A DNA stretch of 62,545 nucleotides, filler included. It is 5 parts of 5 records of this genome, joined end to end, with 100 filler letters (N's around TTAATTAATTAA, not from the genome) between each part and the next. Parts side by side here need not be neighbours in the genome. Positions count along the whole stretch, not along the records: positions 1 to 7,454 come from SRR31156797_8495; 4 more parts are not named here. One strand, 5' to 3'. The translations under genes and the position numbers were made by a program. A model generated the notes under the pieces. The model ran no database searches and was not told where the DNA came from. It worked only from the letters and a program-made list of their open reading frames with translations. The first letter of the stretch is position 1. Each line of letters begins with the position of its first letter. Of this stretch, positions 1 to 7,454 are shown piece after piece.

Positions 1-46
1 TCTAAAAAATATTCTATATATTTTTTAATTATTTACTTATTATTTA

Positions 47-79
47 ATTTTACTTTCGAAATGTATCATAGGTGTATCA
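47..79 (-). promoter_or_regulatory. Direct-repeat box promoter copy 1, pointing off the contig's left end
   Basis: Minus strand reads TGATACA-ccta-TGATACA-tttcgaaag-TAAAAT; same geometry as six other copies. Confidence 0.8.
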
Positions 80-378
80 GACGAAGAATCAATTTCTATA
101 AAAATCCTAAAAGACACAAAATAGATAAAAAAATCACTTAGATAATTTTTAATAAGTATACTTACAAAAATTATCTAAAAAAGTTAATAAAAATTGAAAA
201 AATAAAACTGTATATACAGGTAGAGCTCGAAAAAAATCAAAAAAGAGTTTTAAATTCCAAGTTTGTGTGATAAAATTTAAAAAGTATGAAAAGTATGTTT
301 TTGTTGGAAAAAATTTCAATTATAAAAAGTCTTGATTTTAAAGGCTAAAAAAGCAGAGATGATAACTTGTATCAAAAA

Positions 379-411
379 TGATACATTAATGATACACTTC
401 TGCGATATAAT
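379..411 (+). promoter_or_regulatory. Direct-repeat box promoter copy 2, upstream of the OmpR-type regulator
   Basis: TGATACA-ttaa-TGATACA-cttctgcga-TATAAT; extra inverted half-site TGTATCA at 368-374. Confidence 0.85.
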
Positions 412-451
412 ATAAAGAGTAGAAAAAGTATGAGTGGTTAAAAAAAACAAA

Positions 452-477
452 TATAGTCATTTATATAAATGACTATA
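452..477. repeat. Perfect 26-bp palindrome in the leader of the regulator gene
   Basis: TATAGTCATTTATATAAATGACTATA equals its own reverse complement. Confidence 0.8.
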
Positions 478-551
478 AAAAAGAGAATATGATTTTAGAC
501 GGGTAATGGGATTTAGATTAAAGTTGTTAATTTTTAAAATAGAGGTAATTA

Positions 552-2417
552 ATGAAGTTATTGCTTAATAGTAAAAATATAGACTTAAGAAGAAAATTAG
601 TAGAGAAATTAACCGAGAAATCAATAATTTTTGAATCTTACATAGAAAATGATACATTAAAAATTGCATTTGAGGAAAATTTAGATTTAATCATTGTTGA
701 AGGAATAGAGTTTAATGAAGCGAAACAATTAAGTAAAACAATACTTTCAGACTCATATAACTATTCAAATCCTTATATGATTTATATAGGGGATGGATCT
801 GTAAATGCAGTTGACGTTTATGATGCCGGCTATACGGATTTCATAAAAAAACCTATTACAGTAGATGAAATAGTTAAAAAAATTGAGATTTTTGCAAAGT
901 ATAAAAATATGTTTAAAAATTTATTATCATATCAGGAGATAAAAATCTACCTAAATGAGCAGGTAGTTTTTTATAATAGTGAGAAGATAAAACTCACAAA
1001 ACAGGAGTTTGAAGTTTTAGCGTTTTTTCTAAAAAAACAGGGAATACTTCTGACAAAACAGCGACTTTATGTTGGGATCTGGGGAGAATACAGCCCTAGC
1101 AGCAGAAAATTGGATTTATATATATCCAGATTAAAACAAAAATTTCCTGTGCTAAAAGATAATTTGATAAGCAAAAGAAATTTTGGCTATAAATTAAATA
1201 AATCTCAATATATTGAGCAGGAAAAATCTGAAGAAAATGGAAGTAATGCTTCAACAGCTGTTATTGGGATATTTGAATTGAATAAAAATATACTTGATGA
1301 ATCAACATTAAGAAAATATGAAGATGATCTAAGAAAACTAGATGAGATATTTAGAGAGTTTAACTTAGAAGTAATTAAATTTTATGGAAATAGAATTAAA
1401 TTTATCACTAAAAACAGTAATTTTTGCCTAAACGAACTTCGGTTTAAATTAAATGAAAATAAGCTTGAAACTAAACTAGTACTGGGTTATGGAAAAATCA
1501 CAAAAATAAACACGAGTTTAAGCAGTGAAATCATAAGCAGTACTTTAGAGAAAAATAAAAGTTTAATAAAACTTTGTCAAATGAATGAAATTTTATGTAC
1601 CAGTGAATTTTTAATAAAAAGAGATAATACAGATGAATTTCATAGTATAGGTTATTATGAATTAAGTCAGTTTGGAGTTCAGGAAGTATTTCAGTATAAA
1701 GATCAAAATATTAAGGAAAATGTTATCAGGCAATTAGAAACCTTTAAAACATATGTTGGAGAGATGTTTCTTGTAGAGGAGAATAAGCATTATTTTAAGT
1801 ATTCCAGTAGATTTAAAACGAAATTTTTATCAGATTTTGCTAAAAACAGTGAGATAAAACTATTTAGTATAGCGGTTACAGATAGCAGAGGAAGTAAAGA
1901 AACAGATCAAATTGAGAGAAAAAAGTTTGGCATAATTAGGAGTAATAAAGAGTTAGGACACAGTACTGAAGTTAGAAATTATGATTCTAAAAGAGTTGAT
2001 TTCATCTTTACACCATCTACTGAAATTAATGTAAAGGATTACGTTATAAGTGAAGTTTCCTTTACCACAAATGTTTGTGATTTTATGTTTAATAAACGAA
2101 CAAAAATGGAATCGATTTCAGTTTTTGGAGAGAAATATTATTTTGTAGATGGAACATACAATTTACATTCAGGAAAAAATATTTATGTAAAATTAGTATT
2201 TCCAATTGAATTTTATGACAAGATTAATTTTACTCCGGTTGTCATGAATAGAAAATCTGGAAATGTTAGAATTTTTGAGAAAGAAACATTGGAAATTATA
2301 GAGAAGAACAGCTGTAAAGTTAATCTAAAAGATAAAACTTTTGAAGTGGCAATGACTTTAAGAGATACGAAAAAAGAGAGAGCTTATGGAATAGCTTGGA
2401 ACCCCTATATTTATTAG
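552..2417 (+). CDS. Atypical OmpR/PhoB-family regulator: pseudo-receiver, winged helix, degenerate class III nucleotide-cyclase-like domain, unknown C-terminal domain
   Basis: REC-like DLIIVE...GYTDFIKKP; wHTH motifs LTKQEFEVLAFF, IWG, LDLYISRLKQK, KRNFGYKL; cyclase-like VIKFYGN, KLVLGYG, EILCTSEF; RBS AGAGGT. Confidence 0.75.
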   Translation: MKLLLNSKNIDLRRKLVEKLTEKSIIFESYIENDTLKIAFEENLDLIIVEGIEFNEAKQLSKTILSDSYNYSNPYMIYIGDGSVNAVDVYDAGYTDFIKKPITVDEIVKKIEIFAKYKNMFKNLLSYQEIKIYLNEQVVFYNSEKIKLTKQEFEVLAFFLKKQGILLTKQRLYVGIWGEYSPSSRKLDLYISRLKQKFPVLKDNLISKRNFGYKLNKSQYIEQEKSEENGSNASTAVIGIFELNKNILDESTLRKYEDDLRKLDEIFREFNLEVIKFYGNRIKFITKNSNFCLNELRFKLNENKLETKLVLGYGKITKINTSLSSEIISSTLEKNKSLIKLCQMNEILCTSEFLIKRDNTDEFHSIGYYELSQFGVQEVFQYKDQNIKENVIRQLETFKTYVGEMFLVEENKHYFKYSSRFKTKFLSDFAKNSEIKLFSIAVTDSRGSKETDQIERKKFGIIRSNKELGHSTEVRNYDSKRVDFIFTPSTEINVKDYVISEVSFTTNVCDFMFNKRTKMESISVFGEKYYFVDGTYNLHSGKNIYVKLVFPIEFYDKINFTPVVMNRKSGNVRIFEKETLEIIEKNSCKVNLKDKTFEVAMTLRDTKKERAYGIAWNPYIY

Positions 2418-2464
2418 AACTTCATTTTGAAATATCATATAAGTATTTATCACCTTTTAATTAA

Positions 2465-2639
2465 GGAAAGAGTATTACTAAGATTAATGAAGCAGTCTCA
2501 ATAGTGGTCAATAGCTCTACTGCAATAGAGGAGAAAACTACAAACATTCATGAAACAGTTGAGAAAACTTGCTGATATAAGTGAACAATCGCAAATGGTT
2601 CTTCAGTTAGAATCAGATATTAATTTCTTTAAAATATAA
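2465..2639 (+). pseudogene. Frameshifted C-terminal remnant of a methyl-accepting chemotaxis protein
   Basis: GKSITKINEAVSIVVNSSTAIEEKTTNIHETVEK, frameshift, then LADISEQSQMVLQLESDINFFKI*; FKI* end resembles MCP C-termini; no start codon. Confidence 0.5.
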
Positions 2640-2646
2640 AAAAATT

Positions 2647-2690
2647 AAACTCCCTCTTTGAAAATTTATCTTCAAAGTGGGAGTTTTTTT
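2647..2690. terminator. Probable bidirectional intrinsic terminator
   Basis: AAACTCCCTCTTTGAA...TTCAAAGTGGGAGTTT with T-tract, between convergent genes. Confidence 0.75.
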
Positions 2691-2709
2691 TAAAAGCTGA
2701 AAGCTTTTT

Positions 2710-4809
2710 CTATAATTTAAATTTACTTACATGAGCATTTAACTCTTCAGCTTTATCAGATAATCCAGCAGATGTTTTTGAAACAGCAGAACTATTATCA
2801 GCTACTGTCATACTAAGTTGATAAACACCTTCAGAGGTAGCAACTACCTCCTCTGTACTCGCTGCTTGTTCCTGAGTTATTGCCGCTACGTTTTGCGTCA
2901 TTTCACTTATTTGTGTTATATTATTCATCATTTGCTCAATAAGATTATTTGTATCCATAACTGCGGAAAAAATTCCGTTAAATGCCTTTGAGGCATGATC
3001 AACGATATTCATACTTTTATCAATAGCACTTTTATTCTCATTTGATTCTTTTACAGTGACATTAATAACTTCCTCGATATCCTGAACGACTTTTGCGATA
3101 TTATTTGCCTCATTAGTTGATTCTTCGGCAAGCTTTCGAATCTCATCAGCAACGACAGCAAAACCTCTTCCGGCTTCACCGGCTCTTGCAGCTTCGATAG
3201 CAGCGTTTAAGGCTAATAGATTAGTCTGATCAGCGATACTATTAATTACCTCAACAATATTCTTGATTTTACCTGCATAATTACCAACATTTCCTATTGA
3301 CTCAGCGAGCTTAATAACCGAAGATTCCATATCAGTCATAGTTTGACTGAGCTCTTTCATTCTTTCTTTACCAATATCACTAGCGTTAACTGTTTCGCCA
3401 CCTTTTTCTTTTGCTTTCTCGGCATTAAAACTTGATTCACTGACCTCAGAAGCAAGGCTATTCATGTTTTTTGCAACTTCACTGATTGAAGTTGTCATAT
3501 CAGTCATTGTTACTACTACATTTTTTAAGGAATCAGCTTGCTCATTTGATAAAGAAACCATCTCTTTAGCACTTTCAAGTGATGAACCTGAATCTTCATT
3601 AAGTTCTCGTGCACTTGCATTAAGAACTCTAACTAAATCAATGAAATTTTTATGCATAACACTTAGAGAATTATACATTTGACCAATTTCATCATTTTGT
3701 TTTTTTAATTTTTTGTCAGCTTCTGTTTCAATAATCTCTAGATTATAGTTTGCTAATTGATCTATTCTGTTAGATAGAATGCCAACTTGTTTTACAATTC
3801 TATTAATAATAATTAAAATAATAGTTACCGTTACAATAATTGCGCAAGAGATTCCAATTAACAGTGTCATTATACTAAATGAAATATCTGAATTTATTTC
3901 TTCCATTGCATTATCAGCATCACTTAATCCATCATCAAATAGAAGTGATGCAATTCCAAGGAGATCTTCTGAATCGCTTTCTATTTGTAATTTGATTGCA
4001 TCTATTTCATCATTTGCTTCAATTAAAGCATTAATATCCCCCTCATAACTTACTAAATCTTCAGCTATTGCTTCCAGATTTGCAAGGTCATCATCTTCAG
4101 TTGTAATAAGTTTTGCTTCTCCAAGTAATTTTAGTGCTTGTTGAAACTCCAGAAGTTTTTCATCAAGAAGTGAATAATCATCATTAACTTGAGATTCAAG
4201 TGCTGTACTCACTACATCACTTACGATATCACTTACTTCATCTACTGTAGTCATTCTTACATATTGGGTTTCAATATCAGAACCATCAGCATCTTTTTTG
4301 ATTAATTCAAAAAGCTCACTTTCCTGCTCTTCGGTAAATGAATCTAATACTTCAAATAACTCAGTTGCTCTTTGATCTGATTCCAGTCTATTAAGTTCAA
4401 TCTTATCAAAAGTCGTTTTTGATTGTGCCATTAAAGTTTCAAATGCTGCAACCTCCTCTTCGATCTCATCAATGAAATCATTAAGTTCAATAAGAGTAGG
4501 TTGCTCCTTAACAAGTACTTTGATTTGCTCAATCTCATTCTTCAAATTTAATAAATTTTCCTGTGCATCTGTTAAAAAAATCTCATCACCTGTAAAATTA
4601 TAACCTCTCATATCAAACATAAGATCAAAGGTATTTGACTCGATATCAGCTGCAGTTTGAATTACAGATAAGTAGGCCTCCTCCATAACATCTGCAGATG
4701 AATTTACTTGTTCTAAATAGATATAGGTAGTTACAGTTGCACCTGTTAGAATAAGTGCACTTAATAAAATTGCAATTAATACCCTGGTTCTAAGCTTTAA
4801 ATTATTCAT
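2710..4809 (-). CDS. Methyl-accepting chemotaxis protein with large acidic helical sensor domain
   Basis: Two TM segments, HAMP-like region, signalling motif [48 protein letters not shown]. Confidence 0.95.
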
Positions 4810-5010
4810 ACATAATTCCTCCCCTTGTATATTTTATGTGTGGTAAAAAGATATTTTTTAGTTAAATATTCTAAAATTACAATATAAAACCTTAGAGTAA
4901 TAAAGTGTTCAAATTTATTTATTATCCTTTTAGCTTTTTCAGGCATTTATTTAGTTTACTTATTGATGAATAATTATGATGGCTTTAATATCTCACATAA
5001 CTCTATTCAT

Positions 5011-5043
5011 ATATTACTTTTAGTTTGTATCAATTGTGTATCA
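5011..5043 (-). promoter_or_regulatory. Direct-repeat box promoter copy 3, upstream of the MCP
   Basis: Minus strand TGATACA-caat-TGATACA-aactaaaag-TAATAT. Confidence 0.8.
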
Positions 5044-5157
5044 TGATCAAAATTTTATTATTTGATATTTTGATTTGGAGTAGAAAGCTCCGAGTTTTTA
5101 ATTATATAGAAGACATAATAAGTTAAAAAATTATAGAATTTATCAATAGTACCATTT

Positions 5158-5190
5158 TGATACCTTGATGATACAAGAGAAGACTATAAT
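5158..5190 (+). promoter_or_regulatory. Direct-repeat box promoter copy 4, upstream of the 179-aa ORF
   Basis: TGATACC-ttga-TGATACA-agagaagac-TATAAT; degenerate in-phase third unit TAGTACC at 5147 and downstream half-site at 5194-5200. Confidence 0.85.
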
Positions 5191-5237
5191 TAGTGATACA
5201 GGGAATTAATAAAACTGGAGAAGGTATTGAAGTGTAA

Positions 5238-5777
5238 ATGAACCAAAATTGGTCTGAACTTTTTTACTCAGGTATTATTGAAGATAACTCTACTAATATA
5301 GAGCAATTATCAATTACTAATAATGAGATTTCAAAACAAGTTGCTTCGATATTATCAGAGAATTTAATTGAGCTTGAGGAATTAGGAGAGTTAGAAAGGA
5401 AGGAAAAGTTGAAAAACAATTTTAATCTTGAAGAGTTATATATAACGAATATATTATTAGATTTGAGGGACAGACTTGAAGATAAAACTCAAATTATAAG
5501 AATTCATAATAAAAATAACAGCTTTCCATGTAAACTAAATAAAAAATGCAAAGAAACATTGGAGTTTAATATGGAGCTGCTATTAGTGATGAAAAAACTT
5601 TTATCTTTGGATCAATTTAAAGGAAATGAGATTGAAATTAGTACTAATGAATTTGTAGAAAATGCAAATTTATTAATTAAAATGGGTAAAGTTATATTGA
5701 ATGATACAGAAAATTTATTAGAAGAATTACAACTATCTGAAATCTCAAAATCGTTAAAATGTGATTTAGTTTTATAA
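5238..5777 (+). CDS. Hypothetical alpha-helical protein
   Basis: 179-aa ORF in AT-rich DNA, downstream of promoter copy 4; no family recognised. Confidence 0.65.
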   Translation: MNQNWSELFYSGIIEDNSTNIEQLSITNNEISKQVASILSENLIELEELGELERKEKLKNNFNLEELYITNILLDLRDRLEDKTQIIRIHNKNNSFPCKLNKKCKETLEFNMELLLVMKKLLSLDQFKGNEIEISTNEFVENANLLIKMGKVILNDTENLLEELQLSEISKSLKCDLVL

Positions 5778-5789
5778 AAAAATTTAGTA

Positions 5790-5822
5790 TGAAACTTATA
5801 TGATACAAAGTAATGATAATAT
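5790..5822 (+). promoter_or_regulatory. Direct-repeat box promoter copy 5, upstream of the single-domain receiver
   Basis: TGAAACT-tata-TGATACA-aagtaatga-TAATAT, with TGn extended -10. Confidence 0.65.
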
Positions 5823-6014
5823 ATTAATAAATTAGAAGAGATTCTGGAGAATAATATTAATATAACACAAAATCAAAATGTATTAAATGCCAGTAAAACA
5901 AATACAACAGATTATTACTTGAACCAATCAGCATTAACTATTAGAAATCAATATCTATATGAATATTTGAATGGAAGTAAAACTCTGTAAACTTAACAAG
6001 CTGGAAATTAGGAA

Positions 6015-6428
6015 GTGAAAAAAATGAAGAAAAAAATACTAATTATAGATGATAAATCTATGAATATAAAAGTTTTAAAAAGCATGCTTAAAATTAACTA
6101 TAATATGTTTGCTATTGCTGATAGTACAAAATCTATTGAAGCTATTAAAAAAATCAGACCGGATATGGTTTTATTAGATGTAAATATGTCAAAATTAAAT
6201 GGTCTTGAAGTGGCTAAACTCATTAAGAGTAATAAGGAATGTAAAGAAACACCTATTATATTCATATCTGCTGTAACAGATAAAAGAATAGTTGAAAAAG
6301 CTTTTAAATTAGGGGCAGTTGATTATATTTTTAAACCATTTTCAATTTCAAAAGTTATAGAAGCGATTGCCAGTAACATTGAGGCACAAGGCGAACTTGA
6401 TCTCTCATCGCCATTTCCAGATTTATAA
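6015..6428 (+). CDS. Single-domain CheY-like response regulator (start may be ATG 6024)
   Basis: ILIIDD, PDMVLLDVNM, PIIFIS, GAVDYIFKP; phosphorylation-site residues intact. Confidence 0.9.
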   Translation: MKKMKKKILIIDDKSMNIKVLKSMLKINYNMFAIADSTKSIEAIKKIRPDMVLLDVNMSKLNGLEVAKLIKSNKECKETPIIFISAVTDKRIVEKAFKLGAVDYIFKPFSISKVIEAIASNIEAQGELDLSSPFPDL

Positions 6429-6451
6429 AATTTATCAAATATTTACATGGA

Positions 6452-6484
6452 TGATACCTGAATGATACATTGTTGTGATAAACT
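6452..6484 (+). promoter_or_regulatory. Direct-repeat box promoter copy 6, upstream of a structured non-coding region
   Basis: TGATACC-tgaa-TGATACA-ttgttgtga-TAAACT, with TGn extended -10. Confidence 0.8.
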
Positions 6485-6511
6485 AAAACTATAATGAACG
6501 AATAAATCTAT

Positions 6512-6752
6512 AGCACTATACTTCACAAAATAAGTATTGGACACCAATGATTTTGTTTGAAAGTGCTGATATTTATAACGTTAATTATAGTTAGATTTAG
6601 ACAACCATTATAAATTGAAAAAAAGGAAAAAGGTATTTAATGAAGGGTAGTCAAATAGTAATATCCTGATCCCGAGTTAAAAAATGTTTTAACTCAAAAT
6701 ATTATACAAACCTAAAACTCCTATACCCTCATTAAAAACCTCCTTTTTTTCA
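6512..6752 (+). ncRNA. Candidate structured RNA or leader with two long hairpins
   Basis: Hairpin 6512-6567 (AGCACT..CAAAAT..ATTGG/CCAAT..ATTTTG..AGTGCT); rod 6616-6752 with outer arms 6616-6650 and 6721-6752 and apical GAGTTAAAA/TTTTAACTC. Confidence 0.4.
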
Positions 6753-6797
6753 GCAATAAATATATTATAAGAATTTTAATTAGTAAAGGAGTCTGTT

Positions 6798-7253
6798 TTG
6801 AGTAGTGTAAAGTTTAATATAGTTTTTTTTCTTTTAAGTTCTCTCTTGTTACTAGCATTAAAAGATAGTGTTGAGATTTCTCAAAGTAATAAAAAAATAT
6901 TAGTAACAACATATGAAATGATGATTTTTGAGAAAGCTGAATCTATAATGAATGAGTTATCTCGGATGAAGAGATATGAATCGAGCAAATCAATTTCCAG
7001 AAGAAAAAAAGAAGTTTTTAATAATTCTCTATTTATAATTAAAAATATAGATAGTCATGTAAAACTAAAAACGGAACTTTTTAATTTAAGACAAACAAGG
7101 GATGAGCTGAAACTGCAACTAACAAAATTAAAAAGTAGAAGAGGTATTTTTCTTATATTATTTATACTTGTGAGTATAATAATTATAAGTTTAAATCTAA
7201 TTAAAATCAAAACAGAAGAACTTGAAGAGATAAAGGTATATATTAATAATTGA
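6798..7253 (+). CDS. Hypothetical membrane protein, two TM segments flanking a coiled coil
   Basis: TTG start with RBS AAGGAG; hydrophobic N- and C-terminal segments; followed by terminator. Confidence 0.65.
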   Translation: MSSVKFNIVFFLLSSLLLLALKDSVEISQSNKKILVTTYEMMIFEKAESIMNELSRMKRYESSKSISRRKKEVFNNSLFIIKNIDSHVKLKTELFNLRQTRDELKLQLTKLKSRRGIFLILFILVSIIIISLNLIKIKTEELEEIKVYINN

Positions 7254-7281
7254 TGATTATAAAAAAATAAATAATAAGATT

Positions 7282-7315
7282 AAACTCGAGAATAAATAAT
7301 TTCTTGAGTTTTTTT
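7282..7315 (+). terminator. Intrinsic terminator
   Basis: AAACTCGAGAA...TTCTTGAGTTT followed by T-run. Confidence 0.7.
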
Positions 7316-7333
7316 AGTATATTAGGATGTTTC

Positions 7334-7366
7334 AGATACGCTCATGATACATACGCTGGGTAAAAT
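7334..7366 (+). promoter_or_regulatory. Direct-repeat box promoter copy 7, pointing off the contig's right end
   Basis: AGATACG-ctca-TGATACA-tacgctggg-TAAAAT. Confidence 0.7.
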
Positions 7367-7454
7367 ATATTATAGAGATAATTTTATTAAAAAATGCTCT
7401 TAAATACTAAAATTCTTGTATTAAAATGATGTGCGTAAATTTTGTCAAAATATA

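Follow-up and report, generated by a model that had tools for sequence, protein, structure and literature searches.

The question raised by the DNA analyzed here is which protein reads a promoter-like motif that stands seven times within 7.4 kb, and to what effect. The window (the whole 62.5-kb stretch of DNA that was analyzed) consists of five unrelated contigs with runs of N between them, and the frame of our analysis is contig 1, positions 1 to 7454. A sequence-only reading of this contig had described the motif TGATACA-N4-TGATACA-N9-(-10) as the mark of an undescribed regulon, had likened it to the tandem sites of OmpR/PhoB-type activators, and had named the 621-amino-acid protein encoded at 552-2417 as the obvious regulator. 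We find that the seven sites probably form a real, undescribed and dense regulon. As to kind, an OmpR/PhoB-type regulon is strongly supported by sequence comparison, and the identity of the regulator as the 621-amino-acid protein is moderately supported.

All seven copies of the motif were re-found at the same positions and on the same strands (Table 1) when a site was defined as TGATACA-N4-TGATACA-N9-TAnnnT with at most two mismatches in the double heptamer. The layout had also been read correctly: five sites face the five intact genes and two face off the contig ends. Three features are shared by 7/7 sites, each as previously claimed: TGATACA as the proximal heptamer, heptamers that recur at 11 bp, and a TAnnnT hexamer that begins exactly 9 nt past the proximal heptamer. 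The distal heptamer is more variable (TGATACA in three sites, TGATACC in two, TGAAACT and AGATACG in one each), which gives the oriented consensus (T/A)GA(T/A)AC(A/C/T/G)-N4-TGATACA-N9-TAnnnT, and the -10 hexamers are of good quality, namely TAAAAT, TATAAT and TAATAT (two each) and TAAACT (one). An equal frequency of the motif in coding DNA had been named as evidence against the regulon. All seven full sites are intergenic, within 2.1 kb of non-coding DNA, and the count of seven double heptamers compares with a mean of 0.115 and a maximum of 2 in 200 dinucleotide-preserving shuffles of the contig. TAnnnT has a frequency of 0.052 in the non-coding DNA of contig 1, and its presence at one fixed offset in seven of seven sites has a probability of ~1e-9. 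Every match with up to two mismatches in the whole window falls in contig 1. Single heptamers number 0 to 2 in each of the four other contigs, and four additional ones are found on contig 1, at 368-374, 650-656, 5194-5200 and 5702-5708.

A multiple alignment of the seven regions limits conservation to the heptamers and the -10, while the spacers (N4 and N9) and the flanking sequences differ between sites, and no leader motif common to the seven regions was found besides the box and the -10. Since only the heptamers and the -10 are conserved, these are likely selected protein-binding sites and not a recently copied module or element. A generic -35/-10 scan of contig 1 gave 48 matches compared to 49.3 in shuffles, none of which uses the seven -10 hexamers, and the sequence present at the 17-bp position is ACAnnn or ACnnnn. 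The seven sites have no usable -35 element. In the pho box of Escherichia coli, which is bound by PhoB, two direct repeats of 7 bp, spaced 4 bp apart, take the place of the -35 and reach to about 10 nt from the -10. On contig 1, we find direct repeats with a period of 11 bp, no -35 and a 9-nt gap to TAnnnT in 7/7 sites.

The same box is found outside contig 1. We scanned one genome per prokaryotic species with the exact 33-nt pattern and found at least 121 loci, mostly in Lachnospiraceae, Erysipelotrichales and other Bacillota. The downstream gene, taken as the first open reading frame (ORF) of at least 60 amino acids beginning no more than 400 nt past the box, could be called at 102 of the 121 listed loci. 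In 26 of these 102 it was an OmpR-family regulator gene, complete with Response_reg and Trans_reg_C in 17 cases and a receiver start cut by the end of the locus in 9; such genes normally make up well below 1% of all genes. The 17 complete regulators are one family, with a mean column identity of 60% and the recognition helix R-T-[VL]-D-L-H-[IV]-[QN]-R-[LI]-[RK]-K-K. The box-linked regulators have a canonical receiver and winged helix and are 217 to 232 amino acids long, and the operon order is regulator, HAMP-HisKA-HATPase kinase and a protein of unknown function. Other genes downstream of boxes encode VanY, VanZ, FemAB, LytR_cpsA_psr, sugar transferases and DUF6034 lipoproteins. Taxa with such systems include Lachnospiraceae, Erysipelotrichales, Christensenellales, Paenibacillus and others. 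No name for the family was found, all NCBIfam equivalog scores being under the cut-offs.

The pairing of box and helix was examined in the OmpR-family genes of three genomes that contain the box (43 Pfam matches, 42 of which were recovered as ORFs). An exact box stands 38 to 52 nt before the start codon in exactly 3 of the 42 genes, and all three encode a D-L-H-x-Q-R helix. A fourth D-L-H-x-Q-R gene, L189 (G005:C19), with a helix of the type KTVDLHVQRLRKKA, has the variant TGATGCT-N4-TGATGCA 96 nt upstream, and this repeat may be a natural specificity variant. The fifth gene of this group (D-L-N-x-Q-R helix) adjoins a box that drives a divergent gene. None of the remaining 37 genes, which lack Leu after the helix Asp, has a box with fewer than three mismatches. 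When exact boxes were sought in these genomes without requiring a -10, TAnnnT was present at exactly +9 in 5/5, and the geometry seen on contig 1 is therefore the natural geometry of the box family.

Such regulons are small elsewhere. Five genomes of 2 to 3 Mb have 2 to 7 boxes each (18-nt pattern, at most one mismatch) compared to 0 for a reversed-pattern control. Among 401 sampled genomes of one phylum, 12 have a match to the 33-nt pattern with at most one mismatch, with a maximum of 4 each and a total of 20 places versus 4 control places. Five of the seven contig 1 sites pass this same threshold, within 7.4 kb.

Judged by these genome comparisons, TGATACA-N4-TGATACA-N9-(-10) is a type of promoter that occurs naturally and belongs to a single lineage of OmpR-family regulators. 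Since the box tracks one type of recognition helix, the analogy to the pho box gains direct comparative support, and the tandem 11-bp site that had been read as OmpR/PhoB-type is well supported as to kind, with an identical box and 9-nt gap preceding OmpR-family genes in Bacillota. The box-helix pairing in Bacillota is apparently widespread and undescribed. A full-text literature search, at the level of listings and the starts of abstracts, found no paper describing the TGATACA box, its matches being primers or unrelated. Thus, the earlier claim that the motif is undescribed holds only to the extent covered by this search and by NCBIfam, and not in the sense that the box would be unique to contig 1.

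The 621-amino-acid protein is the sole protein with a DNA-binding domain on contig 1. Its residues 1-217 are homologous to ordinary OmpR-family regulators of ~220 amino acids (~222), with ~30% identity. The winged helix is a clear member of Trans_reg_C (PF00486; residues 144-215, 48.1 bits compared to a cut-off of 26.2, E = 1.2e-12) with the recognition helix RKLDLYISRLKQKF, i.e., R-K-L-D-L-Y-I-S-R-L-K-Q-K. The NCBIfam PhoB equivalog models give scores far under their cut-offs (64 versus 270 bits and 50 versus 296 bits). The receiver (residues ~1-117) is not a canonical response-regulator receiver. In the alignment the acidic pair reads N-S, Glu replaces the phospho-acceptor Asp and the Thr/Ser is absent, while the Lys (of Lys-Pro) is retained, and Pfam Response_reg matches the protein with the last 30 model positions alone (E = 0.013). 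The closest overall match to the DNA-binding domain is itself in an unusual setting for a Trans_reg_C-like domain, as one of four matched stretches in a protein of 6306 residues (P0055).

The C-terminal part of the protein is without recognizable relatives. A HMMER search of 1.84 billion representative proteins returned ordinary receiver and winged-helix proteins matching residues 1-230 and none matching the C-terminal ~400 residues, a word-based search found no relatives of the protein, and residues ~225-621 have no match in Pfam (up to E = 10), NCBIfam or the PDB sequences. For residues 232-420, a language-model search returned Guanylate_cyc in 28 of the 30 best named clusters, with a score of 0.93 and 139 to 145 of 256 shared features, a count below that usual within a family. 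The Pfam model of class III cyclases, PF00211, did not match this region (hmmscan up to E = 10). By eye, the metal-binding Asp positions of cyclases read Glu (IFELN) and Asn (FYGNR) here. The model comparison suggests that residues 232-420 may be a degenerate class III cyclase-like domain.

Several observations point to this protein as the one that binds the boxes. The gene, from 552, has box 2 upstream of it at 379-411, with a leader of 140 nt that is longer than the 38 to 52 nt of the family, and as this box precedes the sole winged-helix gene, like the boxes of the canonical regulators, the 621-amino-acid protein is favored as the binder. Its helix has Asp-Leu and an Arg four residues on (the central Arg) in common with the box family, and the residue following the Asp and the central Arg are presumably those that touch bases in the PhoB-DNA structure. 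Leu after the helix Asp is found in only 9 of the 150 closest homologues of the protein and, of the 42 OmpR-family genes described above, is confined to the 5 whose helix is of the box-family type.

Other observations weigh against the 621-amino-acid protein as the binder. At three variable positions its helix differs from that of the box family (Thr to Lys, His to Tyr and Gln to Ser) and does not fit the family pattern. With its DNA-binding domain as the query, the best box-family member (L037) ranks only about 25th of 167, with 53.7 bits compared to 82.5 for the top match. No full-length relative of the protein was found in the 1.84 billion representative proteins or in the JGI metagenomes. 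An exact box directly upstream is missing in 2 of the 5 box-family-type regulators of the test genomes, and an upstream box is therefore no obligatory mark of a binder. A canonical D-L-H-x-Q-R regulator could also be present elsewhere in the genome. Thus, of the earlier proposal that this protein is the regulator, the winged-helix domain and the upstream box stand, but the DNA-binding domain is not especially close to the box-associated family. Weighing both sides, we lean slightly toward the 621-amino-acid protein binding the boxes and activating the island, on the basis of its sequence and its position. That the sites activate and do not repress, which protein binds them and what the signal is are all points that we infer.

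In the mechanism that we propose, the seven sites would be activator-dependent sigma-70-type promoters at which the tandem repeat stands in for the -35. An OmpR/PhoB-family dimer would bind head to tail on the two heptamers, with its downstream subunit beside the -10, and would recruit RNA polymerase to promoters that are unable to work alone, which would be class II activation as by PhoB. The 621-amino-acid protein would activate its own gene through box 2. It would also switch on the genes of a chemoreceptor, two proteins of unknown function and a CheY-like receiver, along with a structured RNA or leader and the two transcription units cut by the contig ends. As Glu takes the acceptor position of a receiver that is without the phosphorylation pocket, the activity of the protein is probably not set by a histidine kinase. 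It might instead be set by the C-terminal 400 residues or by the abundance of the protein itself, with positive autoregulation via box 2. The extra heptamers at 368-374 (inverted) and 5194-5200 (past the -10) could provide negative feedback. A more far-reaching version of this is that the protein founds a new class of one-component OmpR-type activators, built from a Glu pseudo-receiver, a winged helix, a degenerate cyclase-like module and an unknown domain, which is kinase-free and alone drives a compact island with all of its promoters dependent on the activator. A chemoreceptor, a CheY-like protein and a structured RNA would thereby be linked in a self-amplifying transcriptional switch, with the box and promoter geometry of the widespread Bacillota family reused. 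We offer this tentatively and consider it somewhat more likely to be wrong than right.

The strongest competitor to binding by the 621-amino-acid protein is that the boxes are read by a canonical response regulator of the TGATACA-box family (R-T-V-D-L-H-x-Q-R) whose gene, like that of its kinase, would lie in another part of the genome, the 621-amino-acid protein being a mere target. Every genome in which box and regulator are paired has a canonical protein of 217 to 232 amino acids followed by a HAMP-HisKA-HATPase kinase gene, and this explanation would account for the three helix differences and for a domain that is not closest to the family. However, the regulons of such regulators are small (2 to 7 boxes per 2 to 3 Mb, and at most 4 in each of 12 of 401 genomes) and directed at cell wall genes, compared to seven boxes in 7.4 kb at signaling genes here. 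None of the five genes on contig 1 encodes a HisKA/HATPase kinase (7.4 kb covered), so that there is no adjacent kinase, and a box before the sole winged-helix gene fits an autoregulatory layout. We regard a canonical binder as unlikely, although of the explanations other than our own it deserves the most attention. If the bound protein were instead a repressor, the tandem heptamers would be operators on promoters consisting of a -10 only and the island would be silent. The boxes do overlap the position needed by RNA polymerase, some core promoter parts have extra heptamers on or next to them (5194-5200 past a -10 and the palindrome at 368-374), and the sites at 5790 and 6452, where a TG stands one base ahead of the -10, are possible extended -10 promoters. 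On the other hand, five of the seven sites are without the TGn extension and none has a -35, so that they should be weak unaided, and the same geometry precedes response-regulator genes that are presumed to be autoregulated. PhoB activates from such a layout, with a head-to-tail pair whose end is about 10 nt from the -10, which also counts against repression, and we find silencing of the island improbable.

Two further explanations were considered. That 7/7 transcription units on contig 1 carry the box, with no ordinary -35/-10 promoter standing out, would be expected if promoters of this organism commonly had the box and a general, abundant OmpR-like factor read it. This is contradicted by the number of boxes, which is at most 7 per genome in all genomes examined, by the fact that the contig 1 genes are a functional cluster of signaling genes, and by the read depth, since the extra depth at the contig ends is absent from the internal bins that contain boxes; we consider it very improbable. 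Least probable of all, in our judgment, is recognition of the motif by an alternative sigma factor, such as sigma-54 at a diverged -24/-12 pair (with the same 7+4+7 spacing) or a factor of the extracytoplasmic function (ECF) type at its -35. Two conserved blocks 11 bp apart do resemble a -24/-12, and the targets are chemotaxis-like genes, which often use alternative sigma factors. But the blocks are the same word in direct repeat, a sigma-70-type -10 is at a fixed distance in 7/7 sites, and elsewhere OmpR-family genes are preceded by this same box, in step with the type of their recognition helix. A sigma-54 promoter in the strict sense was rejected, with neither the GG of -24 nor the GC of -12 present and TAnnnT in all seven sites.

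Table 1. Boxes, genes and other features of contig 1 (positions in the window)
Feature	Position	Strand	Description
Box 1	47..79	-	TGATACA-CCTA-TGATACA, 9 nt, TAAAAT; 0 mismatches; faces off left contig end; predicted start ~40
Extra inverted heptamer	368..374	-	TGTATCA on + strand, 4 nt before box 2; palindrome TGTATCA-AAAA-TGATACA with distal heptamer
Box 2	379..411	+	TGATACA-TTAA-TGATACA, 9 nt, TATAAT; 0 mismatches; 140 nt before regulator ATG; candidate autoregulatory promoter
Atypical OmpR-family protein, 621 amino acids	552..2417	+	Degenerate receiver, winged helix and ~400 C-terminal residues
Methyl-accepting chemotaxis protein (MCP), 699 amino acids	2710..4809	-	CHASE3 and MCPsignal; putative target of box 3
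Box 3	5011..5043	-	TGATACA-CAAT-TGATACA, 9 nt, TAATAT; 0 mismatches; faces MCP gene, leader ~200 nt
Box 4	5158..5190	+	TGATACC-TTGA-TGATACA, 9 nt, TATAAT; 1 mismatch; faces ORF 5238; divergent from box 3, 114 bp apart
Extra direct heptamer	5194..5200	+	TGATACA, 3 nt past box 4 -10, near predicted start
Hypothetical protein, 179 amino acids	5238..5777	+	No family match
Box 5	5790..5822	+	TGAAACT-TATA-TGATACA, 9 nt, TAATAT; 2 mismatches; faces CheY-like gene, leader ~190 nt
CheY-like single-domain receiver, 137 amino acids	6015..6428	+	Complete set of catalytic residues (acidic pair, phospho-acceptor Asp, Ser, Lys)
Box 6	6452..6484	+	TGATACC-TGAA-TGATACA, 9 nt, TAAACT with TG before; 1 mismatch
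ORF-free stretch, 307 nt	6491..6797	+	Behind box 6; long hairpin in first ~98 nt
Hypothetical protein, 151 amino acids	6798..7253	+	Hydrophobic stretches at both ends; no family match
Box 7	7334..7366	+	AGATACG-CTCA-TGATACA, 9 nt, TAAAAT; 2 mismatches; after terminator-like hairpin 7282-7311; faces off right contig end

Some further features of the boxes and their surroundings were seen. The extra heptamers at 650-656 and 5702-5708 sit in coding DNA, the latter 88 bp (8 x 11) ahead of box 5. Boxes 3 and 4, which are divergent, are separated by 114 bp, and in this spacer is a terminator-like hairpin at 5072-5096 (+), with 10 pairs and then a T run.

Neither of the two hypothetical proteins has a match in Pfam (up to E = 10), NCBIfam or the PDB sequences. 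A possible RNA had been listed among the targets of the regulon. The stretch behind box 6 folds with a minimum free energy of -63 kcal/mol compared to -42.3 +/- 4.2 kcal/mol in shuffles (z = -4.9), and the part at 6525-6568 is resembled by two other contigs of similar depth in the source run. The lack of an ORF, the folding z of -4.9 and the two resembling contigs make the possible RNA plausible, be it a structured leader or a small RNA of its own. Nothing on contig 1 came near any gathering score in Rfam. Pairing would be possible between a CCUCC at 6740-6744 and the ribosome-binding site (AAAGGAG) of the ORF at 6798.

The chemoreceptor has two orthologues, with 61% and 50% identity, and its other matches, at 23 to 49% identity, are from many phyla. 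A metagenome scan with the chemoreceptor alignment returned just two distant high-GC loci, both without a box, and the sensor domain was not found in the 401 sampled genomes, which are from one Bacillota-type phylum. Between the convergent genes of the regulator and the chemoreceptor, at 2465-2639 (+), are two short open frames that are one base out of register. Judged by eye, they resemble the C-terminal end of another chemoreceptor (…NSSTAIEEKTTNIHETVEK… / …LADISEQSQMVLQLESDINFFKI), and this region may be a decayed gene remnant.

Contig 1 is from a real, uncultured, AT-rich sediment organism, as follows from the recurrence of the contig (7458 nt), with identical ends and at ~37x depth, in one public run that is its likely source and from near-identical pieces of it in a second sediment metagenome. 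No RNA run was found to contain the contig. In the second metagenome, the piece that matches 5246-5862 almost perfectly has 2 substitutions and an in-frame 18-nt insertion after 5745, within the ORF at 5238-5777, and the organism or a close strain is therefore present in another sample. The GC content of contigs 1 to 5 is 27%, 54%, 31%, 36% and 49%, respectively. The four remaining contigs, at 7455-62545 of the window, are without the box and probably come from other organisms. Short read joints (sides of 21 to 24 letters, 80% likeness) were taken as noise. A viral origin was rejected, with just 15 single pattern matches among 2.9 million viral contigs, none of them clustered.

What is unusual on contig 1 is the density of the boxes, the target genes and the atypical regulator, not the box itself. 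If the proposed mechanism is true, this would be a clean natural case of a gene island wired to one activator via promoters without a -35. For the architecture of the regulator, the 1.84 billion representative proteins offer no relative. The pairing of the D-L-H-x-Q-R helix with TGATACA provides a rule of DNA recognition that can be tested directly in OmpR-family proteins, and with it regulons could be predicted in many genomes from the gut and the environment.

With regard to known systems, contig 1 would be a new variant of the known class II activation mechanism, with an unusual regulator and an unusual density. Atypical OmpR-family proteins have been described: HP1043/HsrA of Helicobacter pylori and ChxR of Chlamydia trachomatis are reported to have an unphosphorylated receiver and to bind direct repeats, and dimerization, DNA binding and activation by ChxR are reported to need no phosphorylation (PMC5253667, PMC3960148). 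As described there, these proteins have two domains and an ordinary length, whereas the contig 1 protein, which we liken to them by description only, has an additional 400 C-terminal residues without relatives. With PhoB and the pho boxes, contig 1 shares the 11-bp tandem layout, and the candidate binder likewise has a Trans_reg_C winged helix. In contrast to PhoB, however, the word is TGATACA, the candidate has a non-phosphorylatable receiver and 400 extra residues, and the targets are signaling genes and not phosphate genes. The TGATACA-box systems of Bacillota have the same box, the same 9-nt gap, a box upstream of the regulator gene and Asp-Leu in the helix. They differ in having canonical regulators of 217 to 232 amino acids with an adjacent kinase, cell wall targets and 2 to 7 boxes per genome, while contig 1 combines seven boxes in 7.4 kb with an atypical 621-amino-acid regulator, no kinase and targets of the chemotaxis type.

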